From Synergistota bacterium (GTDB taxonomy: Bacteria; Synergistota; GBS-1): 64,000 nucleotides of DNA. Of this stretch, positions 6,833 to 49,635 are shown in pieces. The notes beneath the pieces are model-generated. The model saw nothing but the letters and a program-made list of their open reading frames with translations. It did no database searches and was not told the origin of the DNA. The stretch covers positions 185,696 to 249,695 of the forward strand of contig JANXBX010000001.1 in assembly GCA_025060595.1 (NCBI GenBank), written 5' to 3'. A program made the translations under genes and the position numbers. Numbering within the stretch: position 1 is the stretch's first letter; each line of letters starts with the position of its first letter.

Positions 6833-6854
6833 CCTCTATCCCTCCTTTAAAAAT

Positions 6855-6889
6855 AAAAGGCGGTAGCGAAAACTCTAACTACCGCCTTT
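6855..6889 (-). terminator. Rho-independent terminator (11-bp stem AAAGGCGGTAG/CTACCGCCTTT) after the cupin/AOR operon; T-rich on both sides
   Basis: Stem-loop with flanking T-runs read directly; lies between the cupin stop (6898) and the dctQ start (6832). Confidence 0.6.
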
Positions 6890-6897
6890 AAATGTCT

Positions 6898-7272: not shown

Positions 7273-7287
7273 ACCCCTACCCCCCTA

Positions 7288-9018: not shown

Positions 9019-9034
9019 TAACTTTATACCCCCC

Positions 9035-10072: not shown

Positions 10073-10097
10073 AGCCCTCTGCCTCCCCTTGACCTAT

Positions 10098-11014: not shown

Positions 11015-11168
11015 TCCCATCTTTCCATTTATATTGTAATTGCTTATTAGAAGAGATGTCAATTGGGTTTCTATCAATAAATAAAATATGCTTCCATATA
11101 GTGGAAGCACAAGAATAACCCTTATCCTACGAGGATTTTACTTAGAGGGATAATTTAGCAGTCCGATT

Positions 11169-33528: not shown

Positions 33529-33541
33529 TATAATATGATAC

Positions 33542-34159
33542 ATGAGCTTTGAGCTTCTCTTAAGAAATATACCCTTAGAAATAAAGATAGAAGAGGTCAG
33601 AAGATACCTAGGAGAATATAAGGGGATAACAGAGATACCTAAGGAAATAAACTCTTTAATAGAAAGGTTAACTTTGTTTTCCAGAACCCTGATTACACCA
33701 TCAGCAACCTCGAAAAGCTTCAATATACTATCCTTTTCAGATAATATTATTGAAACTGAGGTAGTGAAACTTCCTGGTAGAGACATAGCTAAACTGCTTA
33801 GAAACTCTAAACAAGTTATATTCTGCGCAACTACTATAGGAAACACACTAGAAGAGGAGATAAATAGGCTCATAGATGAGAAAAGAATCCTTGAAGCAAC
33901 AATATTAGACGCTATAGGATCGACAGCTGCAGATACTGCAATGGACTATTTAAATAATTTGCTTAAAGCTGAGGCGATCCGTAAAGGCCTAAGCTTAACA
34001 AGAAGATATAGCCCAGGATATGGAGATTTTCCTCTTTCAATCCAGGAAAGCCTAGTTAAGTTTTCTGGGGGAGACTCTATAGGAATAAGAGTCTCCCCCT
34101 CATATATGCTTATACCAAGAAAATCAGTCACAGCTATAATAGGGGTGATGAAAAATTGA
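33542..34159 (+). CDS. Methionine synthase reactivation (AdoMet-binding) domain protein, stand-alone
   Basis: 205 aa with an RRYSPGYGDFP motif resembling the MetH activation-domain RPxPGYPACP signature. Immediately precedes and overlaps a MetH that lacks this domain, as in the Thermotoga TM0268/TM0269 arrangement. Confidence 0.65.
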   Translation: MSFELLLRNIPLEIKIEEVRRYLGEYKGITEIPKEINSLIERLTLFSRTLITPSATSKSFNILSFSDNIIETEVVKLPGRDIAKLLRNSKQVIFCATTIGNTLEEEINRLIDEKRILEATILDAIGSTAADTAMDYLNNLLKAEAIRKGLSLTRRYSPGYGDFPLSIQESLVKFSGGDSIGIRVSPSYMLIPRKSVTAIIGVMKN

Positions 34160-36495
34160 AGCTTGACTTTGAAAAGATAATGATACTAGATGGAGCAATG
34201 GGCACAGAGCTATACAAGAGAGGACTTCCCTCCACAGCCATACCTGAGGAGCTCAACCTCTCAAACCCAGAAATAGTAAAAGAGGTTCACAAGGCCTACG
34301 TAGAAGCAGGAGCTGACATAATAACTACAAACTCCTTTGGAGGAAACAGAATAAAGCTCCAAAGCAAAGGGCTTTCTCACAAACTCTACGAGATAAATAA
34401 AAAGGCTGCTGAGATAGCTAAAGAGGCCTCAGCAGGGAAATCTTTAGTAGCAGGTTCCTTAGGTCCTTTAGGTAGAATGATTGAACCCTTGGGGGATCTA
34501 TCCTTTGAGGAAGCAGTAAGCATCTTTAAGGAACAAGGATTAGCGCTTGCCGATGGAGGGGTTGACCTTTTTCTTATTGAAACAGCCATAGACATAATGG
34601 AGGTAAAAGCAGCAATACTAGGGTTAAGGGAACTTCCCATTAAGAAGCCTATAATATGCTCTTTAACCTTTACAGAGGGAACCCTTACAGTAACTGGAAC
34701 ATCGCCTTCCGTAGGAGCGGTAAGCTTAACCTCCTGGAGGGTTAACGGATTAGGAGCAAACTGTGGAACTAATCCCTTTATATTTCCAGAGATAATAAAA
34801 GAAATGGCAAGCTATACGGAAATCCCAATAATAGCATATCCCAATGCTGGTCCTCCTGAAAAGTGGGATGAGGTTCCTCCAGAAAAGTTCTTGGAACTTG
34901 GACTCGAAATTTATAATTCTGGAGCCAACATCATAGGAGGTTGTTGCGGAACCACACCCTTCCACATAAGTTTGCTTGCAAAGGAAATTAAAGGTAAAAG
35001 AGTAGTAAAAAGATCCTTAAGAAAAGGGATTTTCCTTACAAGTAGATCCAAAATAGTTGTTTGTGATGACAGTAAAACTATAGTGATAGGGGAAAGAATA
35101 AATCCCTCTGGAAGAAAAGCTCTTGCAGAAGAGCTAAAACAAGGTAAGTTTGAAACTTTAAAAAGAGACGCTATAGAACAAGAGCTTGCAGGAGCTGACC
35201 TTATAGATTTAAATGTAGGCGTTCCTGAAACAGATAGAAAGGCTTTGATGAGAAAAGCAACCATTGAGCTTCTTAAGATAATAAGCTCGCCTCTATCCTT
35301 TGATAGCGATGATCCGGAAGTCATAGAAGCTGGTTTAAAGATATATCCAGGAAAGCCTATTTTAAACTCAACAACAGCGAAAAAAGAGGCATTAGAGAAA
35401 ACACTACCTTTGGCCCAAAAGTATGGAGCCGTAATAATAGGACTTACCATAACTGAAAAGGGCATACCTGAAAGCGTAGAAGAGAGAGTTAAAGCAGCCT
35501 ACAAAATAATCGAAGCAGCCCAGTTTTATGGAATTCCCCCACAAGAGGTTATTATCGACCCATTAACTTTACCAGCTGGAGCTCAGGATCCAACTATAAC
35601 CTTAGAAACCATAAGAAGGCTTAACAAAGATGGAATTAAAACTATCTTAGGAATATCAAACGTCTCTCATGGCTTACCAGGGAGAGAAATCCTAAACTCA
35701 GCATTCCTAGCTATGGCCATTTCGGCTGGACTATCTTTCGCTATAATAAATCCCCTTAAAAAAGAGCTTATGGAAACTGTACTCGCTTCAGACGCATTAA
35801 CCGGCAAAGATAAAAAGGGAGAGAGATTTATAAGACTGATAGGTCCTAAAAGAGAAGAAAAAGAGTTAAGGGTTTCCGACCTAACCTTAAAGGAACTAAT
35901 AATAAGGGGTGAATCTGAAAGTGCTTCTAAAGAAGCGGAAAGGCTTATAAAATCTGGAGAGGAGCCTTTTTCAATAATAGAAAAATACGTCATACCAGGT
36001 CTCGAAGATGTTGGAGAAAAGTATGAAAAAAAGATCTACTTTTTACCACAACTTATAGCCTCTGCAGAAGCTGCAAGTTCGGTATTCGAGACAGTTAAGG
36101 CATTTTCTCTAAGGACTAACTCTCGAAAAGGAAGGATAGTTATGGCAACCGTTGAAGGAGACCTTCACGACCTCGGGAAAAAGATAGTAGGACTTGTTCT
36201 TGAAAGCTTCGGATACGAGATAATAGATCTCGGAAAGGATGTTCCAGCAACAGAGGTTTTAAGGAAGTCACAAGAATTAAAACCCGACGTCGTTGGATTA
36301 AGCTGTCTAATGACAACAACGCTTGATAATATGAAAAAAACTGTAAGGCTAATTAAAGAAAACCTACCAGAGATAAAGATCATGGTAGGAGGAGCGGCGG
36401 TAAATGAAGGCTTTGCAAAAGCCTGTGGTGCCGATGGATATGGTAAAGATCCTTTTCAAGCTGTTGAGCTAGTCAGAAGGTGGATTAAAAGATGA
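34156..36495 (+). CDS. metH: Cobalamin-dependent methionine synthase core (Hcy-binding, pterin-binding, B12-cap and B12-binding domains; no activation domain)
   Basis: ILDGAMGTELY Hcy-domain N-terminus; pterin-binding GERINPSG; DLHDLGKKIVG (DxHxxG) cobalamin motif; 779 aa. Confidence 0.9.
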   Translation: MKLDFEKIMILDGAMGTELYKRGLPSTAIPEELNLSNPEIVKEVHKAYVEAGADIITTNSFGGNRIKLQSKGLSHKLYEINKKAAEIAKEASAGKSLVAGSLGPLGRMIEPLGDLSFEEAVSIFKEQGLALADGGVDLFLIETAIDIMEVKAAILGLRELPIKKPIICSLTFTEGTLTVTGTSPSVGAVSLTSWRVNGLGANCGTNPFIFPEIIKEMASYTEIPIIAYPNAGPPEKWDEVPPEKFLELGLEIYNSGANIIGGCCGTTPFHISLLAKEIKGKRVVKRSLRKGIFLTSRSKIVVCDDSKTIVIGERINPSGRKALAEELKQGKFETLKRDAIEQELAGADLIDLNVGVPETDRKALMRKATIELLKIISSPLSFDSDDPEVIEAGLKIYPGKPILNSTTAKKEALEKTLPLAQKYGAVIIGLTITEKGIPESVEERVKAAYKIIEAAQFYGIPPQEVIIDPLTLPAGAQDPTITLETIRRLNKDGIKTILGISNVSHGLPGREILNSAFLAMAISAGLSFAIINPLKKELMETVLASDALTGKDKKGERFIRLIGPKREEKELRVSDLTLKELIIRGESESASKEAERLIKSGEEPFSIIEKYVIPGLEDVGEKYEKKIYFLPQLIASAEAASSVFETVKAFSLRTNSRKGRIVMATVEGDLHDLGKKIVGLVLESFGYEIIDLGKDVPATEVLRKSQELKPDVVGLSCLMTTTLDNMKKTVRLIKENLPEIKIMVGGAAVNEGFAKACGADGYGKDPFQAVELVRRWIKR

Positions 36496-37658
36496 CAGTT
36501 GAAGAAGAGTTTACTATATATGAGGGCACCCCTTATCACGTTGGTTTTCCAGATGTGGAAAAAGCTCCCAATGGAGACATAATAGTTGTATTTAGATTGG
36601 GAAGTGCACACGTTTGGGGAAGAGACGGAAAGATATACTTATCAAGAAGCAAGGACAAGGGCAAAACCTGGGAAACAAAAGAAGCTCTCCATATACCAGG
36701 AAGATTTATCAAATATGAAGGAGAATACAGGCTTCTTTCCGATGATAGGGATCCCTCTATTAAAGCCCTCTCAAATGGGAAAATGATATTAAGCTGGTTT
36801 CACTGGGGAGAAGGAGACAGAGATAATCCAACCAGCTCGATTTATATATCTATAAGCAATGATAATGGAGAAACATGGGAAGATCCACGCTTAGTCTTTT
36901 TTAACGGAGCAACATCAGACAAGATACTGGAAGCAGAAAAGGGTCTTCTTTTTCTTCCAGCTTATGGAACATTAAGTGAAAGTTACTCATCAGCATTTCT
37001 TATAATAAGCGAAAACTATGGGGAAACTTGGGAGGAAAAACCGATAGTTATAGTTAATGGAAACAAATTTAGAATAAACTTCTACGAACCAGCAATAGCT
37101 AAGGTAAATGAAAAAGAGCTTATTTGTGTCTTAAGAACAGACATAGGACCCTTATACTTGTCTCGATCCAAAGATAACGGAGAGACATGGAGCGAACCTG
37201 AGCCATTACCTTTCTACGGGCATGCACCTCATTTACTTAAGCTAATTAACGGAGACTTAATCTTGAGTTTCAGAGATGTGGAACTATATTTCACAGAAAA
37301 ATGGTTCTGGGAAAAGCTCCTTTACAACTTAGGACTAAGAGAAGAAAATCCCTCCTCTCCATTTCCTAAGGGTGAGCTTCTTCCTGAAACTACAGTAATA
37401 GTCAAAGCTTCTCCCCCAGAATACAACTTTAAAAATAGCGAAAAGAAAATAATATATAAACCAAAGGGATATATAATGGAAAATGGGGATATCCTCTTTG
37501 GAGATTCGGGATATCCTTCAGCGATTGAGCTTGAGGATAATAAGATTCTCTTTGTTTTATACGAAGCCCCTTACGGATATAGAGGGAAATACAGCCCTTG
37601 GAGCAGAATAATAGGAATAAAGATAGAAATAGGAGAACCCGGGAGAGGTGATAAATAA
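36492..37658 (+). CDS. BNR/Asp-box repeat protein (sialidase-like beta-propeller), cytoplasmic
   Basis: Four Asp-boxes ([32 protein letters not shown]); no signal peptide; ATGA overlap with the metH stop. Confidence 0.7.
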
Positions 37659-38526
37659 AATGTATAAAGGTGTAATTTTTGTCGGAGGAGGAAAGGGCGC
37701 CTTAAGTTTGCTCAAGCAATTTAAAAAACTAAACCTAAATATATCTGGAGTAATGGATGTAAGACCAGATGCTCCAGCGGTACTCGAAGCTAAAAAATAT
37801 GGCATATTCACAACTACTAAGCTAGATGAGCTTTTGTCCCGTCCTCATGACCTAATAATAGAAGTAACTGGAAAAGAAGAGGTAGTAGAAGAAGTGGAAA
37901 GAAAAAGAGCGCCTCACGTAAGCTTGATTAAATCAAAAGATGCAAGATTCATATGGGATATAATAGAGCGCGAAGAGAAAGAAAAGGAGCTATTAATAGA
38001 GCAAATAAAACTTCTAAGCGAAACAAAAGGAAGTATAGAATACTCTCTACCAGCTGTTTTAAAACTTTCGGAAACGTTACCTAAAGAAACAGAGGAAGTT
38101 AAAAACGTATCTACATTTCTAACAAGCAGAATAGAAAATCTTATAAACGAAGCTGAAAAGCTCAACGGTATAATTAAATCTATACAAGGAATAGCAAAAC
38201 AGACTAAAATGATAGGTCTTAATGCATCCATTGAGGCAGCAAGAGCAGGAGAATTGGGTAGAGGCTTCGCCGTTGTCGCAAGCGAAGTAAGCAAACTTGC
38301 AGACCAAAGCTCAAGTTCAGCCGGTGAGATATCAAACACCTTAAACTATTTGAAACAAAATATATTATCTCTCAAAGATCCTGTAGAAAACATAAAAGAA
38401 ACCATTGAAAGATGCAATATCCTAGCAGAGGAACTTAAATCTACCGCAACTACACTAAAGAATGCCATAACAGCGCTTCTTCAAATAGAGGAAAAGCTTT
38501 TAACCTTGACCAGAAACGGAGCTTAA
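37648..38526 (+). CDS. Soluble protein with N-terminal Rossmann-like (GxGxxA) domain fused to a minimal methyl-accepting chemotaxis protein signalling domain
   Basis: Highly conserved MCP core [33 protein letters not shown]; N-terminus [10 protein letters not shown]...HDLIIEVTG resembles NAD(P)-binding folds; no TM segments; 292 aa. Confidence 0.65.
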
Positions 38527-38544
38527 GGTAAAATAAGCGCAGGT

Positions 38545-38622
38545 CGGGGTGTAGCGCAGACTGGTTAGCGCGCCTGCTTCGGGAGCAGGAGGTCACCGGT
38601 TCGAGTCCGGTCACCCCGACCA
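38545..38622 (+). tRNA. tRNA-Pro (anticodon CGG)
   Basis: Cloverleaf folded by hand: acceptor CGGGGTG/CACCCCG, D-stem GCGC, anticodon stem CCTGC/GCAGG with loop TTCGGGA (anticodon CGG, G37), T-arm ACCGG-TTCGAGT-CCGGT, discriminator A, encoded CCA. Confidence 0.85.
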
Positions 38623-38627
38623 TGCTT

Positions 38628-39383
38628 TTAATAACAATCTACATAAATAGTGCTACCTTGAACAGAAACTACATTAATTGGTAGACCAGCTACCTTCAAG
38701 CTCTGGGCAACACTATTTACATCCCCAGAGTAGAGGAACTCTATGACCGCCTGTCCTCCACCATATGAGGTTATTCTGACGTTTCGAGCACCAGGAAATC
38801 CTCTAATCTTCTCATAAACGCTATTAACCAAGCCATAGTCAGAAGCACCCCTTAAAACAACACGAGCTATTCCAGAAAAATCCCCTGGTTGTTGAGCTCC
38901 TATTAAAAAGGAAGCAGCTTTTGACGCCGCATCTATAAGAGCCTTACGTTGTGCTTCTTCACCAGTATAACCAACCGCTTTAGCAGAAAAGGCTTGACTC
39001 AACAAAAAACGAGCATCCTTTGCCCTATAAGCTTGGATGGAAAGAGAAGCTGTAGCTGTGTATAAGTTAAACTCGTTTAAACGCGGCTCCTCAAGCTGAG
39101 CTCTACCTCTAACAAAATATGCGATATTATAGGTACTTCCTAACTTCATTATTGCTTCAGCATTACCTTGAAGAGCAAGTATAGCCGCTTGACTTTTCTT
39201 TATACTCTCAAGCTGATCCCTTTCAACCACATTATAACCCGCATTTATAAGGGCTTCCATAACTTTCGACTCAGCAAGAGAGTTATTAAATATAACCGCA
39301 ACTCTTCCATCCCTAGGAAGAGAAGCAAAGGCCTCCCCTACAAAAGCAAAAAGAAAAACTAAGAGGATTATTAGTCTTCTCAT
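38628..39383 (-). CDS. Exported protein with diverged CsgG-like N-terminal domain (operon gene 5 of 5)
   Basis: Sec signal peptide; RVAVIFNNS...NVVERDQLESI...GSTYNIAYFVRG pattern resembles the CsgG/LpoB-like fold; 1-nt overlap with the upstream gene. Confidence 0.5.
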   Translation of the reverse strand: MRRLIILLVFLFAFVGEAFASLPRDGRVAVIFNNSLAESKVMEALINAGYNVVERDQLESIKKSQAAILALQGNAEAIMKLGSTYNIAYFVRGRAQLEEPRLNEFNLYTATASLSIQAYRAKDARFLLSQAFSAKAVGYTGEEAQRKALIDAASKAASFLIGAQQPGDFSGIARVVLRGASDYGLVNSVYEKIRGFPGARNVRITSYGGGQAVIEFLYSGDVNSVAQSLKVAGLPINVVSVQGSTIYVDCY

Positions 39384-40786
39384 TACATAGCACCTACTTC
39401 CTTAAGCTTACTCTTTACAGGCTCATAGTTAGGATTAATAGTAAGCGCCTTTTTCCACCACTTTATTCCCTCGTCTTTCCTTCCCATTTCGTAATATACT
39501 CTGCCTAACCAATAGCAAGCTACATAGTTACCATTATAAGCATCAAAAGCAAGCTTATAGTTCTGAATTGCAAGAGAATAATTTCCCTTAGAATAATTGT
39601 AGTAACCAGCTTTGTGCAACCTTATAAGATTAGTTTTTAAACCTTGATCTATAGGCCATAGCTCTATTACCTCTATAGTTGTCCCCGTATTAAGTATGGA
39701 GCTACTCTGAGATGGTGGTGGAGGCGGTGGCGGCGGTGGTGGCTGAGTACCTCCTCCTTGCTGTGATGGCGGTTGTGAAGATGGCGGAGGTGGCGGAAGT
39801 ACACTTCCAGCAGAGCTTGGAGTAGTTTCAGGGCCAACTGTTAACCTTGGCCTTAGCTTTATATTCTCTATAGCAGAAGCATCAAATATTGGCTCGACTT
39901 TATCTCCTCTCATGACTCCCTTACCCTTGATTACACTTGCTATGGAATATTGGGGGAAAACCTCCTCAACTTGAAGAATAGCTATATAATACTTTTCAAC
40001 ACCAAGAAGCTCTCCTCTAATGCCACGTATAGGCTCACCCTCGATATAAACTGCAAAATAACTTCCAACCGTTACACCCGCATTAGCTTCTCCTGCATCT
40101 ATATAAACTCTGTTCCCCTCATCCCTTATCACATGATATATCATTTTCCCACCACGTGCTCTCATGGCCCCGATTTTTTTAACTATCTTTTCTATACATT
40201 GACGTGTAGCAGCAGCAAGTATTCCTTCCTCCTCGCTTTGGCCATACAGTAATCCCCCAAAGGCTATCCCACCAGCACTACGAGTAGCCTGACCTGTTTC
40301 TTTAGCCACAAGTAATATTTCACCAGTCTCCACACTTATCATTCTGATGTCTAAAGTAACATTAGCTTCTGACTCCCCTACAGCTATCCCGCCAAGCTGA
40401 GGAATAGGAATAATTCCTCCCTTTTTCTTCAAAGTAAATTGAGTTATGCTACCAGTTATAATAGCTTCGACTCCCAAAAGCTTCCCCAATTGAGCAGCAG
40501 TAGAAGCATCAACTAATCCCGCTTGAGCAAGCTTATGTTCCCTCGCGATCGCCTCTAAACGGCTTCTTTCTACTATAGAGAACATCTGCGTTTTCCAAAG
40601 CTCGGTTATAAACATATCAGTTATCGCTCTTCTCACAGCTTCAACCTGGGAACTTTCAGGTCCTGTTACATTATTACTAAAATCTACAACAGCGATTCTC
40701 ATTTTATCAGAAGCTCCAAAAGCAACGGAAACCAAACAACACAGTACGCTAAAAATAATAATCACCCATAAACCAAATTTCTTCAT
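39383..40786 (-). CDS. CsgG-family exported protein with poly-proline linker and C-terminal TPR repeats (operon gene 4 of 5)
   Basis: Signal peptide. RIAVVDFSNN...SIVERSRLEAIAREHKLAQAGLVD...GKLLGVEAIITGSI...DIRMISVETGEIL matches the CsgG Pfam pattern. PPPPPSSQPPSQQGGGTQPPPPPPPPPP tract, then TPR-like YYEMGRKDEGIKWWKKALTINPNY. Confidence 0.7.
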   Translation of the reverse strand: MKKFGLWVIIIFSVLCCLVSVAFGASDKMRIAVVDFSNNVTGPESSQVEAVRRAITDMFITELWKTQMFSIVERSRLEAIAREHKLAQAGLVDASTAAQLGKLLGVEAIITGSITQFTLKKKGGIIPIPQLGGIAVGESEANVTLDIRMISVETGEILLVAKETGQATRSAGGIAFGGLLYGQSEEEGILAAATRQCIEKIVKKIGAMRARGGKMIYHVIRDEGNRVYIDAGEANAGVTVGSYFAVYIEGEPIRGIRGELLGVEKYYIAILQVEEVFPQYSIASVIKGKGVMRGDKVEPIFDASAIENIKLRPRLTVGPETTPSSAGSVLPPPPPSSQPPSQQGGGTQPPPPPPPPPPSQSSSILNTGTTIEVIELWPIDQGLKTNLIRLHKAGYYNYSKGNYSLAIQNYKLAFDAYNGNYVACYWLGRVYYEMGRKDEGIKWWKKALTINPNYEPVKSKLKEVGAM

Positions 40787-40804
40787 AACCGTTACCCTCC
40801 CCTC

Positions 40805-41251
40805 CTACTGAACCTCTACACTATACTCTAACAGTTCCTTTAAAGGTATCTTCAAAACTATTCTATAAAACTTTCCATCAAAAATTTCCTCAGTCACATA
40901 ACCTCCTCCAACTACACCCTTTATCTTCACACTTTTATACCCCTTAGGAAGAGGATAATTAAGCTGATATAAAAGAAAGAGAGCATTTCTTTGGGCTATT
41001 AACACTGCCGCTCTTCGGGCAAGAAGCTTAGCTTGTGCCTCCGTTTCATACTTTTCTGGAACCATTCCTATACCTTTTACAATAACCATCTTCTCTTCCC
41101 AGTCTATGCTACCCCATGGAAAACCTTCCAAGGCAAGATTACCCTCATTAAATCTTCTTAAAAGCTCAATGTCTACATTGTAAGGAACAGCATAGACTGG
41201 GAAAGAAAAAAATAAAAATAAAGGGAGAAGGGTAATAACTACCTTCTTCAA
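40805..41251 (-). CDS. LPP20/FlgP-like exported protein (operon gene 3 of 5)
   Basis: Signal peptide; AQAKLLARRAAVLIAQRNALFLL motif typical of the LPP20/FlgP family; 148 aa. Confidence 0.55.
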   Translation of the reverse strand: MKKVVITLLPLFLFFSFPVYAVPYNVDIELLRRFNEGNLALEGFPWGSIDWEEKMVIVKGIGMVPEKYETEAQAKLLARRAAVLIAQRNALFLLYQLNYPLPKGYKSVKIKGVVGGGYVTEEIFDGKFYRIVLKIPLKELLEYSVEVQ

Positions 41252-42396
41252 ATACCTCCCCCTCCTGGTTTTAACTTACAAATTATATTATTTGCTGTAA
41301 AGTTTACAATCTCCAAACCTAGCTCCTCAAGACGAACCGCTAAGTCTTCAGAATTACCTTCAAAATTAACATCCATTACAAGGTTACCATCGGTAAAGCT
41401 TCTCTGATATACCCCAACAACCCCCTTAAACTTCTCTATCTCACCTTTGATCTTACGAGCCTGAGTAAAGTTTATTCCTTCTACCCTAACCTGTATTGTC
41501 CTTCCAGCGATTCCCTTACCCGTCTGGCCAAGCATAGCATAGGCAACTTCATAAATGAGCTTCTTCGCTGCCTCAGTAGCAGCCTCCCTTAAGGCCTTCA
41601 TGGCAGCATCATCAACGCTTAAACCAATACTTCTAACAGAAGGTATAGCAACCCCTAATATCTTCCCGGTCTGGGTTATTATGGCCTCTATGCTAAGTTG
41701 AGCCTGAACTCCATAAAGTTTTTGACCTGAAACTACTTGAGATGTATAAGGAACCGCCATAGCCTTACCGGATATAACCACATCGGCATCATGTCTTTTA
41801 GCAAGCTCTATCAATCTAGATTTGTCTCCGGTCAAGGCTGCTTCTGTTGCTTCTCTACGCCTGTTAACGTCCACCTGACCAGGATCAACTATATGATATC
41901 CAGCATTTTGAAAGATACTTAATATAGTAGACTCACTAACTGAGAGAAAAGGGGTTTTCCCATCTATGTTTTCAGCTATACAAACCATTAAAACTGGATT
42001 ACCCAAGGTATCAATGACCACAGGTCCTAAAACATCGTTTAACTTAGTTAAGGCAACTGTCGCTTTCATTTTAACTTTTATCATCCCGTCTTCTTCCCAT
42101 CTACTAAGGACCTTATAGTCAGTGACGAGCCCCTTAGACTGAGCCATAACTTTATCTCTTATAACCTGAAAGTTTTCCATTTCCGTTATTCCTTGAATTA
42201 AAACCCCCAACCCTTGCTCTATAGCATTTCTAAAAGCATCCCTTTTCGCCTCTTCAAAGGCCCTGTTTTTATCTCCCCCTATAATAGCCCCTACTCCCTC
42301 TACATCAAGCGTAACACTACCTTTTTCTTGCCCAACTACCACAAACGGACAAGCTAACAGAAGTGATAATAAAAGAAAAGGTAGTAAGAGCCTCAT
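41248..42396 (-). CDS. Multidomain lipoprotein: LPP20/FlgP-like N-domain + CsgG-like middle domain + C-terminal domain (operon gene 2 of 5)
   Basis: Lipobox LLLAC; GGDKNRAFEEAKRDAFRNAIEQGLGVLIQGITEMENFQV (LPP20-like), then VLMVCIAENIDGK...GYHIVDPGQVD...HDADVVISG (CsgG-like). Confidence 0.55.
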   Translation of the reverse strand: MRLLLPFLLLSLLLACPFVVVGQEKGSVTLDVEGVGAIIGGDKNRAFEEAKRDAFRNAIEQGLGVLIQGITEMENFQVIRDKVMAQSKGLVTDYKVLSRWEEDGMIKVKMKATVALTKLNDVLGPVVIDTLGNPVLMVCIAENIDGKTPFLSVSESTILSIFQNAGYHIVDPGQVDVNRRREATEAALTGDKSRLIELAKRHDADVVISGKAMAVPYTSQVVSGQKLYGVQAQLSIEAIITQTGKILGVAIPSVRSIGLSVDDAAMKALREAATEAAKKLIYEVAYAMLGQTGKGIAGRTIQVRVEGINFTQARKIKGEIEKFKGVVGVYQRSFTDGNLVMDVNFEGNSEDLAVRLEELGLEIVNFTANNIICKLKPGGGGI

Positions 42397-42402
42397 TCAG
42401 GC

Positions 42403-43245
42403 TCACCTTTTCACCACTATAACATTGCAAGCGGCTCTAAAGTCATAGTTATTATTTCTTATAGCATCTGCATCCTTCTGAGAAATAACCACATCTACAT
42501 TATTAGGAGAAACGGTTTGAACAGCCTTAGCCACAAGAGGCCTAGGACCCACCCTTGGATCGCCCGTTGCCCAGTTTATGTTAGTTTGATAGGCGGCCAT
42601 ACCGCTTGCCATGAACCTTTCCCTATCAACATGCTGAAGAGAGTAAACTTCCTTTCCATTGGGATCCAAAATTCTAAAGGTAGTAGCAGGAATCAAAGGC
42701 ACTTCACGCGCATCAAGAACAAGCCCAGTGTAGTTCGCCTTAGGTGGGGGTGGTGATACCGGTTTGGATTGGATACCCATGGTATCAGCAACAATCTTCC
42801 TCACTTTCTTAAGATATATTCTTCCCCAAACGGTGTAAATCTCCCCATCCCACTTTTCCCTAACTATCTCAACACCTTTAATCCATCCTTCCACTTCGCT
42901 TCTCACAACATCGCTTTTAACCATAAAGTTTTCCATAAGAGTCTGACTATCTATTCTAACTCCTTTTATAGTCTCGAGTAAGTTTCTCTGAAGGTCTAAA
43001 ATAGCTCCCCTCTTAGCTAGGAGTTTCCCTTGAGCTTTATTAACAGCAGTAGTCGGGGGAACAGCAGAACCCGAAGCCTCAACATAGTCCTCCGTCCAGT
43101 TAATGGTTCCGTGAGCCGTCTCTTCTATAACCTTTTCCATTTCAGCTCCCGCTTGAGCCTGAATTCCGGAAGATTGAGCGAAAGCCCCAAGTGCCATAAT
43201 CCCTAATCCTAAACATACCATTAGCCATCCTATGGGCTTCCTCAT
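42403..43245 (-). CDS. LPP20/FlgP-like exported protein with extra C-terminal domain (operon gene 1 of 5)
   Basis: Signal peptide; AVNKAQGKLLAKRGAILDLQRNLLETIKGVRIDSQTLMENFMV...DGEIYTVWGRI matches the LPP20/FlgP pattern. Confidence 0.55.
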   Translation of the reverse strand: MRKPIGWLMVCLGLGIMALGAFAQSSGIQAQAGAEMEKVIEETAHGTINWTEDYVEASGSAVPPTTAVNKAQGKLLAKRGAILDLQRNLLETIKGVRIDSQTLMENFMVKSDVVRSEVEGWIKGVEIVREKWDGEIYTVWGRIYLKKVRKIVADTMGIQSKPVSPPPPKANYTGLVLDAREVPLIPATTFRILDPNGKEVYSLQHVDRERFMASGMAAYQTNINWATGDPRVGPRPLVAKAVQTVSPNNVDVVISQKDADAIRNNNYDFRAACNVIVVKR

Positions 43246-43291
43246 ACTAGTCTCCTCCTCTCCAAATTTTTATAAATTTATTTTACCACAT

Positions 43292-44062
43292 TTACTTAAT
43301 TCTGAAAAACTTGTTAGCGTTTTCATAAGTCAGAAAAGCAAGCCTCTCCTTATTTTCACCCCTTGCTCTAGCTACCTCTTCAAGCACATACAAAAGATAG
43401 GAGGGCTCATTCCTTTCCCCTCTGTGAGGCCTAGGAGCTAAATAAGGGGAATCCGTTTCTATAAGAACTCTTTCAAGTGGAACTAACGATGCAGCTTTCC
43501 TTAAGTCATCTGCATTAGGAAAAGTTATTATGCCAGAGAAGGAAACGTAAAGTCCGAGAGATAACCCCTTTTCAAGATACTTCGTACCACCCGTATAACA
43601 GTGCAACACTCCTCCACCTTCAGGTAGACCTACATTTTCAATTATCGAAAAGGCATCCTCATGGGCATCCCTTACATGAATTATCACAGGCTTATTAACT
43701 TCCTTAGCTAAAGAAAGCTGGGCTTCGAAAACTTTCCTCTGAATCTCCCGAGGAGAGTTATCATAGTAATAATCAAGGCCCGTTTCCCCTAAGGCCACAA
43801 CCTTTGGATGAGAAAGAAGCCTCTTAAGGTTTAATATATCTTCCTCACGGAAAAGTTTCGCATCATGAGGATGAAAACCACAAGCAGCATAAGCACCATC
43901 CATACCTTCCACCATCTTCACTGCTCTCTCACTTGATGACAAGTCCCATCCTACTACAACCATTCTGTAGATTCCAGCCTTTTTAGCCTTTTCGTAAACT
44001 TCTCTCCAATCATCTTTAAAATGCTTCATATTAAGATGGCAATGGCTATCAAAGAGCCTCAT
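43292..44062 (-). CDS. tatD: TatD-family metal-dependent hydrolase (DNase)
   Basis: MRLFDSHCHLN N-terminus and conserved His/Asp/Glu pattern. Confidence 0.85.
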   Translation of the reverse strand: MRLFDSHCHLNMKHFKDDWREVYEKAKKAGIYRMVVVGWDLSSSERAVKMVEGMDGAYAACGFHPHDAKLFREEDILNLKRLLSHPKVVALGETGLDYYYDNSPREIQRKVFEAQLSLAKEVNKPVIIHVRDAHEDAFSIIENVGLPEGGGVLHCYTGGTKYLEKGLSLGLYVSFSGIITFPNADDLRKAASLVPLERVLIETDSPYLAPRPHRGERNEPSYLLYVLEEVARARGENKERLAFLTYENANKFFRIK

Positions 44063-44067
44063 TTTCT

Positions 44068-45954
44068 TTAAGTCACCTTACTTCCAGGCCCTACCTCTTT
44101 CTCTGGCCTAAGTATTACTGGCCTACCCTCCTTATCTATAGCAGCAAGAAGCATCCCATGAGAGATTATCCCTTTTATCTTCGCAGGCTCAAGATTAGCT
44201 ATAACAACTACTTCCTTGCCAACAAGATCCTCAGGGGAGTAAACTTCCGCTATCCCAGCAACTATAGTTCTTACCTCATCACCCACATCTATTTCAAGTT
44301 TAAGAAGCTTATCGGTTCTCGGCACTCTTTCCGCAGATATAACCCTAGCTATCCTCAAATCCATCCTCCTAAATTCCTCGATGCTTATAAACTCGGTCAT
44401 TTTTCTCTCCTCCTTTTTAGGTTCAACCACTGCCTCTTTTCTGGGGAAAAGTATCTCCCCAGGTTTAACTTTGATACCAACTGGAAACCTACCCCAAACT
44501 AAGGAGGAAAAACCGTGATCCTCTGGTTTTCCCTCCAAACCAAGCATTTTCCAAGCTTTAACACCGCTTTCGGGCATAAAGGGGGTCAGCATAACAACCA
44601 GAAACCTCAGTCCTTCAAGAACAGTATAGAGAATCCTTGATAGCCTCTTTTTATTACCCTCTTTAGCTAAAGACCAGGGAGATGTTTCGTCTATATACTT
44701 ATTAAGGCGAGATGAAAACGCGAAAATATCCCTTAAAGTTTTGTCGAAACCAAACTCATCCATATATTCCTTAGCCCTTCTTAAGGTTTCCTCAGCCAAG
44801 GAAGCCACTTCCCTATCAACTGGCTCTTCTTCCCCAGGTTCAGGAACGATGCCATCAAAAAATCTTTCAACCATGACTAAAGTTCTATTAAGAAGGTTAC
44901 CAAAGTTGTCAGCAAGGTCACCGTTAATCCTGTTTATGAAAGCATCATGTGAAAAATCCCCATCAAGGCCAAAGGGGACTTCCCTAAGTAAGAAGTACCT
45001 GAAGGAATCAACCCCATACTTATCCACTACCTCATTAGGATCTACTACATTACCCTTGGACTTCGACATCTTCTCCCCTTCAACCGTCCACCAACCATGC
45101 GCAAATACCATCTTTGGAGGATTAAGTCCAAGAGCCATGAGCATAGCAGGCCATATAACCGCATGGAATCTCAAGATATCTTTTCCAACAAGATGGTGAA
45201 CTACAGGCCAATATTTTTTAAGCTTCTCATCATCCTGAGTAAACCCCGCAACCGTAAGATAGTTTATAAGAGCATCGAACCAAACATATATCACATGAGA
45301 GGGATCTCCTGGGAAAGGTATACCCCACTTCACAGTTGTTCTTGTAACACTTATATCCTTTAACCCCATTTTTATAAAGCTATAAACCTCATTATATCGA
45401 GACTCCGGTTTGACACAATCAGGATTTTTCTCCATATGCTCAAGAAGCTTATTCTGATATTTAGAAAGCCTAAAAAAGTATGTTTCCTCGCTTACCCTTT
45501 CAACTTCTCTACCACAATCAGGGCATCTCCTTTCAGCCAGAAGCTGCGATTCACTCCAAAACGTTTCACAAAAAACACAGTACCACCCTTCATATACTCC
45601 CTTATATATATCTCCCGACTCTATCATACGTCTAAAAGCCTCTTGAACCACATTTTTATGTCTTTCTTCCGTGGTTCTTATAAAATCATCATAGCTTATG
45701 TTAAGCTTGACCCATAAGCTCTTAAAGTTTTCAACAACCTTATCGGCAAGCTCCTTTGGATGAAGAGCCTGCTTCTCAGCAGCCCTATGTATCTTCTGAC
45801 CATGTTCATCAGTCCCCGTACAAAATAAAACATCATAGCCATCCATCCTTTTCCAACGAGCCATGACATCCGCTGCTATAGTCGTATAGGCATGCCCTAT
45901 ATGAGGAACATCATTAACATAATAAATCGGAGTAGTTATATAAAATCTCTTCAA
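44068..45954 (-). CDS. metG: Methionine--tRNA ligase with C-terminal tRNA-binding (EMAP/Trbp111-like) domain
   Basis: HIGH (HIGHAYT) and KMSKS motifs, Zn-knuckle cysteines; 628 aa. Confidence 0.95.
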   Translation of the reverse strand: MKRFYITTPIYYVNDVPHIGHAYTTIAADVMARWKRMDGYDVLFCTGTDEHGQKIHRAAEKQALHPKELADKVVENFKSLWVKLNISYDDFIRTTEERHKNVVQEAFRRMIESGDIYKGVYEGWYCVFCETFWSESQLLAERRCPDCGREVERVSEETYFFRLSKYQNKLLEHMEKNPDCVKPESRYNEVYSFIKMGLKDISVTRTTVKWGIPFPGDPSHVIYVWFDALINYLTVAGFTQDDEKLKKYWPVVHHLVGKDILRFHAVIWPAMLMALGLNPPKMVFAHGWWTVEGEKMSKSKGNVVDPNEVVDKYGVDSFRYFLLREVPFGLDGDFSHDAFINRINGDLADNFGNLLNRTLVMVERFFDGIVPEPGEEEPVDREVASLAEETLRRAKEYMDEFGFDKTLRDIFAFSSRLNKYIDETSPWSLAKEGNKKRLSRILYTVLEGLRFLVVMLTPFMPESGVKAWKMLGLEGKPEDHGFSSLVWGRFPVGIKVKPGEILFPRKEAVVEPKKEERKMTEFISIEEFRRMDLRIARVISAERVPRTDKLLKLEIDVGDEVRTIVAGIAEVYSPEDLVGKEVVVIANLEPAKIKGIISHGMLLAAIDKEGRPVILRPEKEVGPGSKVT

Positions 45955-46784
45955 TCCTTATCCCCCCTTTTCAACTTCAAAACCATCTTATATATTTCCC
46001 TTTTAGGGAGCTTGATCTCCTCAGAAAGCTTCTTTACCACTTCCTTAGAAGTAAGTCCCTTTTTCAGGAGAGAAGTTATCCTTTCCTCAATGTTCTCCTT
46101 AACATCTCCCTTGCTAAGATTCTCATTACCTTCTACCACTAAAACGATCTCTCCCTTCAGATCCTTCGCCTTAGCTAAAAGCTCCGAAAGGTAGCCTCTT
46201 AAAGCTTCCTCATGAAGCTTGGTTATCTCTCTAACTAAACAAGCCTTTCTATCTCCTAACATTTCAAGTATATCACACAAGCTTTCATATATTCTATGAG
46301 GCGATTCATAAAACACCAAAGTAAAGGGAAGATCCCTAAGACCCTTTAGAGTCTTCAACCTCTTCCCCTTCTGAGAGGGAAGGAAACCATAGAATATAAA
46401 TGGATGAGGAGTTATCCCTGAAAGAAGGAGAGCAGGAACAAAAGCAGTTGGTCCAGGGAGAACTTCTATCTTAAAACCCTCCTCTATACAAAACTTTATC
46501 GCTTCAGCTCCTACATCAGATATTCCAGGAGTACCTGCATCGCTCACCAACGAAATACTTTTCCCTTCTGAAAGAAGCTCTTTAAGAAGAGGAATCCTTT
46601 TCTTCCAGTTATTCTTGTTATAACTATAAAGCTTTTTCCTTTCTATTCCATATTTATTAAGAAGTATTCGAGTTCTTCTTGTATCCTCAGCAAATATAAC
46701 GTCACATTCTTTTAAAATCCTTAAAACCCTTAAAGTTACGTCTTCAAGGTTACCTATTGGTGTCGGACATATAAATAGGGGCAT
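45951..46784 (-). CDS. rsmI: 16S rRNA (cytidine1402-2'-O)-methyltransferase RsmI
   Basis: Tetrapyrrole-methylase fold N-terminus MPLFICPTPIGNLEDVTLR. Confidence 0.85.
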   Translation of the reverse strand: MPLFICPTPIGNLEDVTLRVLRILKECDVIFAEDTRRTRILLNKYGIERKKLYSYNKNNWKKRIPLLKELLSEGKSISLVSDAGTPGISDVGAEAIKFCIEEGFKIEVLPGPTAFVPALLLSGITPHPFIFYGFLPSQKGKRLKTLKGLRDLPFTLVFYESPHRIYESLCDILEMLGDRKACLVREITKLHEEALRGYLSELLAKAKDLKGEIVLVVEGNENLSKGDVKENIEERITSLLKKGLTSKEVVKKLSEEIKLPKREIYKMVLKLKRGDKD

Positions 46785-47513
46785 TTATATCTCACCCATA
46801 TATATCTTCTTTAGCTCCTCCGTATAACTTCCGTCCTCGTTATAAAGAATAAGAGGGCAAGAAACCTTTATCGATGGGGAACCATCTCTAACTCCCTTAA
46901 CCAAGATGAACTCAGCATCCTCATTAATTTTGGAATGGACAAATCTCATCTCCTTAGGCTCTATCTTAAGTCTTCTCATATGAAATAAAAGCTCAGCTAA
47001 CCTAAAGGGCCTATAGATGAGGTATAGTCTTCCACCCGTAGAAAGAAGATACCTTGAAGCTTTCAAGAACTCTTCAAGAGTACAACCTTCCTCGGTATAA
47101 GCTATGGATCTCATCTTATCGGAAGGTAACCTTCCGCTCTCCAACGATATGTAGGGAGGATTACCCAAAACCACGCTAAACGCCCCTTGCGGGAAATATT
47201 CTTCTATTTTTCTTAAGTCTCCCTGAATTATTTCTATTCTTTCAGAAAACCCGTTGATCTCAACGTTCTTTCTAGCTAGCTCTACAAGCTCAGGTTGTAA
47301 TTCTATCCCCGAAAGCCTTATCCCAGGAACCTTCAAGGCTAAAAGAAGAAGTACTATTCCCGTTCCTACCCCAAGCTCTATAACTTTATCTTTCGGCCTT
47401 AAAGTCAAAAAATCAGAAAGCAAAAGAGCCTCAATCCCAAAACGCGGTCCTTCCGAAGGTTGATAAAGCTTAAGCTTCCCCCTTAATATAGAATCAAACG
47501 TATATGTGCTCAT
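46785..47513 (-). CDS. N6-adenine-specific methyltransferase, small domain (tRNA m6A37 TrmN6/YfiC-like)
   Basis: NPPY motif (VLGNPPYI) and SAM-binding ELGVGTG. Confidence 0.7.
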   Translation of the reverse strand: MSTYTFDSILRGKLKLYQPSEGPRFGIEALLLSDFLTLRPKDKVIELGVGTGIVLLLLALKVPGIRLSGIELQPELVELARKNVEINGFSERIEIIQGDLRKIEEYFPQGAFSVVLGNPPYISLESGRLPSDKMRSIAYTEEGCTLEEFLKASRYLLSTGGRLYLIYRPFRLAELLFHMRRLKIEPKEMRFVHSKINEDAEFILVKGVRDGSPSIKVSCPLILYNEDGSYTEELKKIYMGEI

Positions 47514-48082
47514 TTCCTTTTAGCCTTAGATTTCGCCTCCTCTACCTCTCCTCTAAGTAGCTCTAAAACCTCCCTAATAAGCTCTCCCTTGCTTTTGTTT
47601 AAAAGCATAGAGAGCTTTTCTCTTAAACGACTCTCTATCCTCGAAGGATCAGAACCATATTTATTAATAGCTACATCCAAAAGCTTAAGCATTCTATCAA
47701 GTACAGAAGCCCCTATCTCCCTAACTATAAGCCTTTTAGTCACCTCAGCAGCCCCTTCAACAGAAAAACCAAAAAGAAGGAGATCACCAAAACCATCAAT
47801 AAAAGCCTTTACCTCCCCCTCAGAAAGCCTCCATAATAGAGAAGATTTAACCAAATCCTTTAAAGAAATTATTAAAAGAGATTCTTCAAGGCTTTTATCC
47901 CCAACCTTGTTAAGCAGGCTTTTTATCCCTCTTTCCACACCACCATAAAAGTCCTTTTTAGCTTTTTCTGAAAAAGTCGAGGCTTCAAGAATTTCCTTGG
48001 TATAGGTTAAGATCTCATCATGAACTTTGCCCTTGTCAAGAGAATAGGCGTTTGAAGAAAGAAGCAAAAGCCAAAGGATCAA
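47510..48082 (-). CDS. Hypothetical exported protein (190 aa)
   Basis: N-terminal hydrophobic signal-like segment; helical; no confident family assignment. Confidence 0.4.
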   Translation of the reverse strand: MILWLLLLSSNAYSLDKGKVHDEILTYTKEILEASTFSEKAKKDFYGGVERGIKSLLNKVGDKSLEESLLIISLKDLVKSSLLWRLSEGEVKAFIDGFGDLLLFGFSVEGAAEVTKRLIVREIGASVLDRMLKLLDVAINKYGSDPSRIESRLREKLSMLLNKSKGELIREVLELLRGEVEEAKSKAKRK

Positions 48083-48755
48083 AAGGCAACCAACTCTCCT
48101 CAGATCCCTTCACCTCCCTTAAATAACCTAAGGTCAAAGCATAACCCAGAGCAAAGGAAAAGGCTACATCAGAGAAAAAGTGATTATTGGTCTCCAATCT
48201 ATTATAAGCCACAATAACTATAAGAAACAAAAAGGCTAATCTTATCCATCCCTTAAACCTCATTCCTATCCAGCTAAAAGTTGAAGTGGCAACAAGTACA
48301 TGTCCTGACGGGAAACTTTGAAAATCGTTTTTAAACAGAGATTCAGGAAAATTAAAGAATGATAATTCTCCTAGACCCATATAAGGACGAGCTCTACCTA
48401 ATAATACCTTTAATAGATTCCCCAACAATGCAGTTAAAACTATAAGGCATAGGAGCTCGAGGATAGGATTTTCCCATTTTTCCAACCTTAGGATATAAAA
48501 AAGACATAAAAAAGAAAGCAAGAGAGGCAAAATGAAATCTGCATCTCCTATAATATTACCAAACTTAGAAAGACAGGACACTCTTCCTAAATCTGATGGA
48601 AAGACAAAATCCATAGGGATGAGGAAAATGAAAAGTAAAAGGATAACTTCTACTTCTAATTTCCTCAGGGAATTCAAAAAAGACAGGATTATCCCTTTTT
48701 TCCAGCTTCTATAAAGAAAACATAAGAGAAGAACAGCAAAGAGTAATTTATACAT
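48036..48755 (-). CDS. PAP2-family membrane phosphatase
   Basis: PSGH and SRx5Hx3D-like (NRLETNNHFFSD) acid-phosphatase motifs; multiple TM segments. Confidence 0.75.
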   Translation of the reverse strand: MYKLLFAVLLLCFLYRSWKKGIILSFLNSLRKLEVEVILLLFIFLIPMDFVFPSDLGRVSCLSKFGNIIGDADFILPLLLSFLCLFYILRLEKWENPILELLCLIVLTALLGNLLKVLLGRARPYMGLGELSFFNFPESLFKNDFQSFPSGHVLVATSTFSWIGMRFKGWIRLAFLFLIVIVAYNRLETNNHFFSDVAFSFALGYALTLGYLREVKGSEESWLPFDPLAFASFFKRLFS

Positions 48756-48770
48756 ATAATAATACTAAAT

Positions 48771-48794
48771 AAGGGGAGCTGGATTGCTCCCCTT
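48771..48794 (-). terminator. Rho-independent terminator AAGGGGAGC-TGGATT-GCTCCCCTT downstream of the HU gene
   Basis: 9-bp GC stem followed on the minus transcript by a U-rich tract (rc of ATATAATAATACTAAAT). Confidence 0.6.
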
Positions 48795-48812
48795 AAATGT
48801 TATAAAAGCCAC

Positions 48813-49100
48813 TTACTTACCCGTAACTTTCGTTTTAAGCTCTTTACCTACTCTGAAAACAGGAACCTTCCGAGGCGGTATCTTAATTTCCTCACCAGTA
48901 CGAGGGTTCCTGCCAACTCTTTCAGCCCTTTCCTTAACCTCAAATATACCAAAACCAGCTATCTGAACTTTCTCTCCTTTAGATAGGGCATCCATTACCG
49001 CTTCAAATAGAGCATTAACAACCAAAGCAGTGTCTTTCTTAGTCATGCCCGTTTTCTCCGCAACTTCCCGAACCAACTCTGCCTTCGTCAAATTTCTCAC
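48813..49100 (-). CDS. hup: HU-family DNA-binding protein
   Basis: 95 aa; GFGIFEV...RNPRTGEEIKIP arm motif. Confidence 0.9.
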   Translation of the reverse strand: MRNLTKAELVREVAEKTGMTKKDTALVVNALFEAVMDALSKGEKVQIAGFGIFEVKERAERVGRNPRTGEEIKIPPRKVPVFRVGKELKTKVTGK

Positions 49101-49629: not shown

Positions 49630-49635
49630 ATTCTA

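Follow-up and report, generated by a model that had tools for sequence, protein, structure and literature searches.

Five adjacent genes of a Synergistota bacterium, located in a 64-kb stretch of DNA that we analysed as a whole (hereafter the window), encode proteins with signal peptides that combine CsgG-, TolB_N-, FlgT- and FlgP-related modules. With moderate confidence, we interpret them as specifying an outer-membrane-associated, multi-ring periplasmic complex that would be neither curli nor flagellar, and we regard the operon as a candidate for an H-ring relative outside the flagellum.

Gene order and domain content

The five open reading frames, designated A to E, occupy positions 38628–43245 on the minus strand (Table 1). 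Their junctions, calculated from the coordinates, are +6 (A/B), −4 (B/C), +18 (C/D) and −1 nt (D/E), in agreement with the initial annotation, which had described a coupled minus-strand set with gaps of −4 to +18 nt. In all five products, the N terminus is hydrophobic and leads to an A/G-x-A/G site of the signal-peptidase-I type, as read from the sequence, so that the signal peptide postulated for each protein is borne out. Orthologues of the five genes, sharing 30–87% identity, are found in the same order in at least ten Synergistota loci, from which we conclude that the genes are real. The two recurring domain types proposed earlier, CsgG-like in D, E and B and LPP20/FlgP-like in C, A and B, proved to be correctly allocated according to Pfam, family profiles and hhalign, and both the P10 run and the TPR repeats ascribed to D are present.

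Table 1. Genes and protein features of the operon (nucleotide positions refer to the window).
Feature	Position (nt)	Residues	Strand	Remarks
Gene A	42403–43245		−	280 aa; FlgP/LPP20-type + conserved C-terminal domain
A signal peptide		1–23
A FlgP/LPP20-type SHS2 domain	42796–43128	~40–150	−	followed by a short Pro-rich linker
A conserved C-terminal domain	42406–42732	~172–280	−
Gene B	41248–42396		−	382 aa; FlgT-like, different third domain
B FlgT_N/FlgP-like N-domain		~28–123		preceded by a signal peptide
B middle domain, TolB_N/PelC/CsgG fold		~133–290
B C-domain, ferredoxin-like		~299–375
Gene C	40805–41251		−	148 aa; TTG start; single FlgP-like domain
C FlgP-like domain		~42–140		preceded by a signal peptide; insert 9 residues shorter
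Gene D	39383–40786		−	467 aa; CsgG-family + FlgT_C-like barrel + Pro linker + TPR
D signal peptide		1–24
D CsgG-family domain		26–210		two long β-hairpin segments, ~117–141 and ~165–185
D FlgT_C/TsaP-like β-barrel		217–300
D disordered Pro-rich linker		318–376		includes P10
D TPR module		381–463		Pfam TPR_2, E = 9e-9
Gene E	38628–39383		−	251 aa; TolB_N/CsgG-like + ferredoxin-like
E signal peptide		1–20
E TolB_N/CsgG-like domain		~22–165
E ferredoxin-like C-domain		~172–249

D matches Pfam CsgG (PF03783; NCBIfam entry PRK15184) over profile positions 7–199 of 210, reaching 126 bits where the cut-off is 20.8 (E = 1.7e-36), and its relatives are labelled 'CsgG/HfaB family' at NCBI; with the NCBIfam CsgG equivalog model (NF011731), its 20.7 bits fall far below the cut-off of 505, and it hence does not qualify as an orthologue of curli CsgG. 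The D family aligns with E. coli CsgG without gaps through the TM1 hairpin, which has the same length in both, and the AF2 model of D predicts strands at residues 108–126 and 133–151 that would form long hairpins. The equivalent of the CsgG constriction loop, read from the alignment, is about four residues shorter and lacks the Tyr/Asn/Phe motif, so that a gated pore of the CsgG type is not assured.

The relationship of A to FlgP emerges from family profiles: the A profile matches Campylobacter jejuni FlgP (9hmf_C, E = 7.8e-15) and the FlgP chains 9yfg, 9yec, 9yds and 8z5n_2. In the stretch that separates the SHS2 helix from the following strand, the A–FlgP alignment contains a single one-residue gap, indicating that the insert forming the FlgP hairpin is present in A at equal length; this insert, as defined in PMC12222027, is the ring-building hairpin linked there to ring formation. 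The C profile also matches 9hmf_C (E = 4.3e-5); this alignment has a gap of 9 residues at the insert. A and C are related to each other (98.4% and E = 4e-15 by hhalign; 28% identity and E = 1e-7 by tblastn), and A is related to B (95.5% by hhalign). Pfam LPP20 (PF02169) itself stays below threshold, with E = 0.17 and 12.8 bits against a cut-off of 25.9 for A alone and no match for C alone; the Calditrichota homologue of A lies barely above it, at 26.0 bits. The C-terminal domain of A, which had no match in Pfam and PDB sequence searches, is highly conserved in the orthologue alignment and recurs in Calditrichota (locus L029) and in loci L080 and L081.

The profile of the B N-domain family matches FlgP as well (E = 3e-4), and B aligns across the insert region with a gap of at most one residue, a match in length and sequence, the model having a pLDDT of 52–66 there (B residues 61–90). 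Residues 133–374 of B match E (hhalign, 99.3%, E = 3e-20); judging from this comparison, E is a paralogue of B that lacks its N-domain counterpart. The N-terminal half of E matches the CsgG domain of D (hhalign, 86.5%, E = 4.6e-6) and Pfam CsgG with E = 0.009, and a PDB sequence search with E returned no match. The B family is large: at E ≤ 1e-30 it comprises 870 clusters (50% identity), and every named member retrieved carries the label "hypothetical".

A complex of several lipoproteins, as initially suggested, does not hold for Synergistota. The sole lipobox-like motif (LLAC, in B) is not conserved in orthologues; no lipobox Cys at the end of the signal sequence is conserved in 15 D orthologues, a lipobox-like motif being found in 5 of 45 D-family sequences; and the signal regions of A and C show no conserved Cys among Synergistota orthologues. 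Since a lipobox Cys is conserved in none of the families' Synergistota orthologues, we conclude that these proteins are not lipoproteins. Their relatives in Elusimicrobiota are lipoproteins, including a FlgP-like homologue with a lipobox in Elusimicrobia. Likewise, a sixth CsgG-like paralogue reported at 17.5 kb could not be confirmed: it shows no CsgG match, only FlgT_M with E = 0.023 and a profile match spanning 20 residues.

Related loci

The A-B-C-D-E order is kept in Synergistota loci (L002–L014), and a core made of a FlgP-like gene, B and a gene of the CsgG type is found again in Calditrichota, in Elusimicrobiota and on metagenome contigs (also in L081, L082 and L083), which bears out the idea of a conserved envelope gene set. 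The Calditrichota locus L029 encodes A, a TPR+SLH lipoprotein, B and a short D; the SLH domains of this TPR partner suggest a cell-wall connection. In Elusimicrobia (L087 and L088), the order is LPP20-like, B, GNA1162-like (PF05643) and CsgG, with a lipobox Cys in all four proteins of L087. These two loci are an intermediate form between the Synergistota operon, where Pfam detects no PF05643 match, and the CsgG/GNA1162-like cluster discussed below.

Proposed assembly and competing explanations

In solved structures, CsgG, PelC, FlgT and FlgP are all ring oligomers, and the ring or channel in the outer envelope that the initial annotation envisaged therefore fits the folds. This part of the proposal is consistent with the hairpin of CsgG TM1 length kept by D, and the role of D as a pore would be an extrapolation from these resemblances. 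In CsgG, each subunit contributes two transmembrane β-hairpins to a 36-stranded barrel. Against a ring or channel count the low confidence of the second D hairpin (pLDDT 56–63 in the AF2 model), the absence from D of a lipid anchor, which E. coli CsgG requires to reach the outer membrane, the non-significant LPP20 scores of A or C alone, and the lack of a conserved candidate substrate gene next to the cluster.

In the assembly that we propose, D would oligomerise via its CsgG-family domain and would dock on, or insert into, the outer membrane via two glycine-rich β-hairpins, as in CsgG. Its FlgT_C-like barrel would sit below the CsgG-family domain, and the proline-rich tether of about 60 residues might give the TPR module access to further partners or to the cell wall. 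SHS2 domains of the FlgP/FlgT_N type would come from A, B and C; in A and B, the insert has the length seen in FlgP, where it is the ring-building element of flagellar disks. B and E would contribute TolB_N/PelC-type domains, so that stacked or concentric rings might form around or under the D ring through contacts among the five proteins. The most likely job of such an assembly would be that of a conduit or anchor for a surface polymer or protein, with a putative transport activity, or that of an outer-membrane scaffold.

The five genes could instead encode an accessory of the Synergistota flagellar motor, similar to an H-ring or basal disk, in which A and C would correspond to FlgP, B to FlgT, and D and E to FlgO-like rings encircling the L/P rings, with all five encoded outside the flagellar loci. 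This explanation, which we find quite improbable, would account for the counterparts that each non-TPR module has in FlgP, in FlgT_N/M/C or in the FlgO-related TolB_N-fold group; it also draws on an MCP-signal gene that adjoins the operon, on the motility of many Synergistota and on the situation in Vibrio, where the H-ring is likewise made from the products of accessory genes, namely flgT and flgOP. However, the 64-kb window is devoid of flagellar genes, and tblastn with 20 E. coli flagellar proteins retrieved no homologue from the window and 83 related loci (1.1 Mb in total), while in Elusimicrobiota and Calditrichota the core lies among housekeeping or outer-membrane-protein genes. Moreover, a related CsgG/GNA1162-like cluster exists in Acinetobacter and Neisseria, which are non-flagellated, and CsgG-type hairpins like those of D are unreported for FlgO or FlgT.

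Secretion of the curli or holdfast type, with D as a CsgG/HfaB pore for an amyloid or anchor protein whose gene lies elsewhere and the other four proteins as periplasmic adaptors resembling CsgE and CsgF, seems unlikely. The strong, nearly full-length PF03783 match, the preserved TM1 hairpin length and the NCBI label of the D relatives speak in its favour, as does the export of fibre or anchor proteins by HfaB as well as CsgG; yet tblastn with E. coli CsgA, CsgB, CsgC, CsgE and CsgF detected no homologue in the window or the related loci, and the Pfam tables of the window show none. The equivalog score, the absence from D of the constriction-loop motif and of a lipid anchor, and the lack of any conserved repeat-rich or amyloid-like gene nearby in the Pfam tables of the window and related loci also argue against it. 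Together with the flagellar searches, these results agree with the initial remark that neither curli nor flagellar genes lie close by. Finally, the proteins might act as periplasmic scaffolds rather than channels, in the manner of LpoB, TolB, Pal or YbgF, linking the outer membrane to peptidoglycan or regulating wall synthesis in lineages with atypical tethering. We give this little credence: the LpoB match overlaps a far stronger CsgG match, PBP, Tol and Pal genes are not adjacent, and D retains the CsgG-typical hairpin inserts.

The non-flagellar multi-ring complex that we favour could itself belong to an ancient and widespread outer-membrane machine, a CsgG-type pore caged by FlgP-like and FlgT-like rings, from which FlgT, FlgP and FlgO would have been co-opted and which, in Synergistota, would have been rebuilt without lipid anchors and with pore subunit and TPR partner joined in one protein. 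We consider this broader scenario doubtful. If true, it would imply a distinct assembly route for an outer-membrane complex in a diderm devoid of Lol, as Synergistota are to our knowledge.

Comparison with known systems

Residues 224–313 of D match the FlgT-like part of TsaP (PDB code: 3jc8; E = 7e-4), which forms a ring around the secretin of type IV pili. In TsaP, the FlgT-like module thus encircles an outer-membrane conduit. D has no LysM domain, and secretin or pilus genes are absent nearby. With E. coli CsgG (PDB codes: 4uv3 and 6lqh), D shares PF03783 membership, the α/β core and the equal-length TM1 hairpin, but it lacks the Cys anchor, its constriction loop is shortened and devoid of the Y/N/F motif, it carries about 260 extra C-terminal residues and it has no CsgA/B/E/F partners. 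Residues 29–333 of B align with the model of Leptospira LipL46 (NCBIfam NF033164, E = 3e-11), although the score of 42.4 bits against a cut-off of 400 makes B a distant relative only; LipL46, which published work presents mainly as a surface-exposed protein and adhesin, is an outer-membrane lipoprotein, whereas B of the Synergistota operon is not a lipoprotein.

The flagellar counterparts are the Vibrio H-ring (FlgT, FlgP and FlgO; PDB codes: 8z5n, 9yds and 9yef) and the Campylobacter basal disk (FlgP and FlgQ; PDB code: 9hmf); FlgT, FlgP and FlgO assemble into outer-membrane rings of 26- and 58-fold symmetry. Structural similarity to solved FlgT was found, and all FlgT and LPP20 scores of the operon are sub-threshold (e.g. 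17.6 bits against 28.8 for FlgT_N and 13.6 against 27 for FlgT_C). Compared to these systems, the operon lacks a flagellar gene context and lipidation, and D has CsgG hairpins and TPR repeats. The FlgT N-M-C modules, rather than residing in one protein, are split over two: B combines N-like and M-like domains with a ferredoxin-like third domain instead of FlgT_C, and the FlgT_C-like barrel lies in D.

The closest known parallel is the three-gene CsgG/HfaB cluster of Acinetobacter baumannii, Neisseria meningitidis and others, which encodes a CsgG homologue together with DUF4810-like and GNA1162-like (DUF799) lipoproteins. Both are non-curli sets centred on a CsgG-family protein, include accessory proteins of the TolB_N fold and are widely distributed, with E holding the GNA1162-like position in the Synergistota operon. 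The latter differs by the addition of the FlgP-like A and C and of the FlgT-like B family, by the barrel, Pro linker and TPR repeats appended to D, and by the fact that none of its five proteins is a conserved lipoprotein. The initial description of an undescribed complex holds only in part: the gene set is an elaborated form related to this widely distributed cluster, which in A. baumannii affects PNAG and pilus display.

Layout and surroundings of the operon

The five minus-strand ORFs that the initial annotation had placed at 38628–43245 were found exactly there and are referred to here, in transcription order, as A to E. From the ORF coordinates, the A/B, B/C, C/D and D/E junctions measure +6, −4, +18 and −1 nt, and each product starts with a hydrophobic stretch followed by a signal-peptidase-I-like motif (AFA, VVG, VYA, AFG and AFA, respectively). 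The operon is preceded on the same strand by rsmI-like, metG and tatD genes; on the other side, across a tRNA-Pro gene, it adjoins a gene for an MCP-signal-domain protein that has no transmembrane or HAMP region and carries an N-terminal Rossmann-like GGGKG motif. No terminator-like hairpin is present between the tRNA gene and gene E. Promoter and terminator scanning gave counts equal to those expected from shuffled sequence, with only a hint of a −35/−10-like site upstream of A.

Elsewhere in the window, the Pfam tables reveal no genes other than those for housekeeping, TRAP transporters, sugar-acid metabolism, an encapsulin and regulators. In the encapsulin system, the gene for an EncFtn-like cargo precedes that for a Linocin_M18 shell. 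The many sets of TRAP transporter genes (at least four DctP, three DctM and two DctQ) lie amid sugar-acid catabolism genes. The window is 99.95% identical to contig JAOAII010000002.1 of GCA_026414785.1, a MAG named "Synergistetes bacterium" at NCBI, whose nearest relatives are hot-spring "bacterium GBS-1"-type MAGs. There are 8 mismatches in 16 kb (33001–49000), with the A, B, D and E products (the four compared) unchanged, and a G8 run, which is G6 in the other contig, immediately before the glutamate dehydrogenase gene.

Features of the window and of related loci
Sequence	Feature	Position	Strand	Remarks
Window	Gene A	42403–43245	minus	ORF, 280 aa
Window	Gene B	41248–42396	minus	ORF, 382 aa
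Window	Gene C	40805–41251	minus	ORF, 148 aa, TTG start
Window	Gene D	39383–40786	minus	ORF, 467 aa
Window	Gene E	38628–39383	minus	ORF, 251 aa
Window	−35/−10-like site	43308–43280		Upstream of A
Window	tRNA-Pro(CGG)	38545–38622	plus	Downstream of operon, convergent with E; end 5 nt from E stop codon
Window	MCP-signal-domain protein	37648–38526	plus	288–292 aa
Window	Secreted protein	17510–18298	plus	262 aa; no significant family match
Window	Encapsulin system	~49280–50433	plus	
Window	TRAP transporter sets	1–64000		
Window	G8 run	~58276		
L002	Second-D region	1155–2816		minus	
L002	Second-D region	10001–11974	plus	
L004	D orthologue	7001–8391		Two overlapping tblastn pieces (7001–7189, 7153–8391)
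L029 (Calditrichota)	Cluster			A, TPR+SLH lipoprotein, B, short D, FecR-domain protein
L029	TPR lipoprotein, two SLH domains	3189–4424	plus	Between A and B homologues
L080 (metagenome contig)	Cluster and upstream genes	1–9077		Ser/Thr kinase with D-like TPR region, then A, B
L081	Cluster			A-B-C-E'-D'-D
L082	Cluster			FlgP-like, B, CsgG-like, WG/TPR protein, CsgG-like
L083 (Elusimicrobiales)	Cluster			Outer-membrane beta-barrel protein, FlgP-like, B, 217-aa protein
L087	Cluster	2665–11682 (region)		LPP20-like, B, GNA1162-like (PF05643), CsgG
L088	Cluster			B, GNA1162-like (PF05643), CsgG

Domain content, paralogy and lipidation

Profile comparisons bear out the allocation of CsgG-like and FlgP/LPP20-like domains to the operon proteins made in the initial annotation. 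The FlgP kinship of A and C is visible with family profiles, whereas Pfam LPP20 alone misses it: A matches this model with E=0.17 only, but a profile of ten A orthologues matches Campylobacter jejuni FlgP (9hmf_C) with E=7.8e-15 and Vibrio FlgP chains with E-values of 1e-5 to 1e-3, and the profile of the C family finds FlgP with E=4.3e-5, 9 residues being deleted in the alignment. The SHS2 domains of the operon are paralogous (hhalign, 98.4% for A and C, 95.5% for A and B). E is a paralogue of residues 133–374 of B (hhalign 99.3%, E=3e-20), and its N-terminal half is similar to the CsgG domain of D (86.5%). E is not a GNA1162-like protein, as no PF05643 match was obtained among 13 orthologues. 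Orthologues of A show strong conservation of its last 110 residues, a domain for which searches of Pfam, NCBIfam and PDB sequences found no match.

Two points of the initial annotation did not hold. The lipobox and the multi-lipoprotein complex are at odds with alignments A1–A6, in which no lipobox cysteine is conserved in any of the five families; a lipoprotein complex is thus ruled out for Synergistota, and the LLAC motif of B is a local accident. Likewise, the protein at 17.5 kb, proposed as a sixth CsgG-like paralogue, has no CsgG match: its only similarities are a weak FlgT_M match (E=0.023) and 20 residues that match the 'ADV-I-G-A' motif of B. This protein may have a TolB_N-like fold; CsgG paralogy is not demonstrable.

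Conservation and genomic context of the cluster

The A-B-C-D-E order is common to the Synergistota MAGs (L002–L014), with 30–87% identity. Full-length D (CsgG domain, barrel, proline-rich linker and TPR) was found in Synergistota only; a shorter D of about 300 aa, limited to the CsgG domain and the barrel, occurs commonly in Elusimicrobiota, Acidobacteriota, Calditrichota and other groups. Searched exhaustively with HMMER, the B profile yielded 870 clusters (at 50% sequence identity) at a threshold of E≤1e-30 and 5306 at E≤1e-10; most of the best 150 are full length. The B family, whose sequence clusters number in the hundreds to thousands, has no dedicated full-length Pfam model; its named members, from Synergistota and Elusimicrobiota, are all called "hypothetical protein".

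A FlgP-like gene lies close upstream of B in every retrieved context that shows DNA upstream of B (L088 begins at B, the upstream gene being outside the sequence), and directly adjoins it in all of these except the Calditrichota locus, where a TPR+SLH gene intervenes. A CsgG-family gene is usually found downstream of B. The TPR module, either fused in D or encoded by a separate gene, travels with the set; in one phylum, Calditrichota, it bears SLH wall-binding domains, and the L080 kinase has a C-terminal TPR region that matches the one of the D family (E=3e-6). In that contig, three HSP70-like genes and a GrpE-domain gene also precede the A-B pair. In L087, all four cluster proteins have lipoboxes.

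Several local variations were noted. Aminiphilus-like genomes (L002, L011 and L013) contain a second D paralogue, about 657 aa long, in which the linker+TPR module is duplicated, and, on the opposite strand, a 553-aa protein whose C-terminal FlgP-like domain is 49% identical to A, with a GT10 glycosyltransferase between the two. The split D orthologue of L004 points to a frameshift in this MAG or to an error in its assembly. The L087 cluster, which comes from an Elusimicrobia MAG, has metG-tatD a few genes upstream, like the operon of the window, a recurring proximity that is probably coincidental.

The gene context was further probed with tblastn. Twenty E. coli flagellar proteins and three chemotaxis proteins, searched against the window and 83 related loci (1.1 Mb), gave only two CheY-like receiver matches; the Pfam tables of the window contain no flagellar gene, and a flagellar locus is not supported. 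E. coli CsgA, CsgB, CsgC, CsgE and CsgF have no homologues in the window or the related loci, and the NCBIfam equivalog score is far under the cut-off, which rules out a curli locus. Since no flagellar or curli genes were found there and profiles recover both CsgG and FlgP domains (family profiles being required for the latter), the initial annotation withstands the two refutations that it had named, absent domains and a location within a flagellar or curli locus.

A possible ring assembly and its relation to known systems

TPR repeats aside, the folds of the operon all form rings on the inner side of the outer membrane. CsgG assembles as a nonamer. PelC is a dodecamer according to its PDB entry title, Vibrio cholerae assembles 26 FlgT, 58 FlgP and 58 FlgO copies, and C. 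jejuni builds concentric FlgP rings through a hairpin insert (PMC12222027), an insert that has the same length in A and B and is shortened in C. From these ring-forming folds, we infer that D would form a CsgG-like oligomer, with hairpins touching or crossing the outer membrane, and that the other four proteins would make up accessory rings. The proline tether of D (about 60 residues, at most roughly 18 nm fully extended by our estimate) would allow the TPR module to reach a partner or the wall. The most economical function would be to transport or anchor a surface component. This parallels the loss of PNAG and Cup pili in an Acinetobacter baumannii csgG-cluster mutant, the one case in which a related cluster has been studied by experiment. 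A pore-less scaffold fits the fold data equally well.

If the proposed ring complex exists, flagellar-ring and curli-pore modules cooperate in a separate, phylogenetically broad envelope system, which would be a concrete candidate for the non-flagellar stock that gave rise to H-ring and basal-disk proteins. It would also offer a handle on the CsgG/GNA1162-like clusters affecting surface polysaccharide and pili in Acinetobacter, and a natural comparison of one outer-membrane complex in its lipidated (Elusimicrobiota) and non-lipidated (Synergistota) forms, with a bearing on outer-membrane protein targeting in diderm Terrabacteria.

Compared to known systems, the cluster does not belong to the curli system, from which it differs in equivalog score, lipid anchor and partners, nor is it a flagellar H-ring or basal disk, from which context, lipidation and the FlgT architecture set it apart. 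Because the operon has no PF05643 gene, it is not strictly of the CsgG/GNA1162/DUF4810 type either, but the Elusimicrobia loci bridge the two. Literature searches turned up no description of a gene cluster in which a CsgG-family member has FlgP-like and FlgT-like partners. Its domain families are well known and its function is putative; the interest lies in the large unannotated B family, the conserved pairing of B with FlgP-like genes outside flagellar loci and the contrast between lipidated and non-lipidated versions. Taken together, these features connect curli-type channels with flagellar outer-membrane rings in a way that can be tested.
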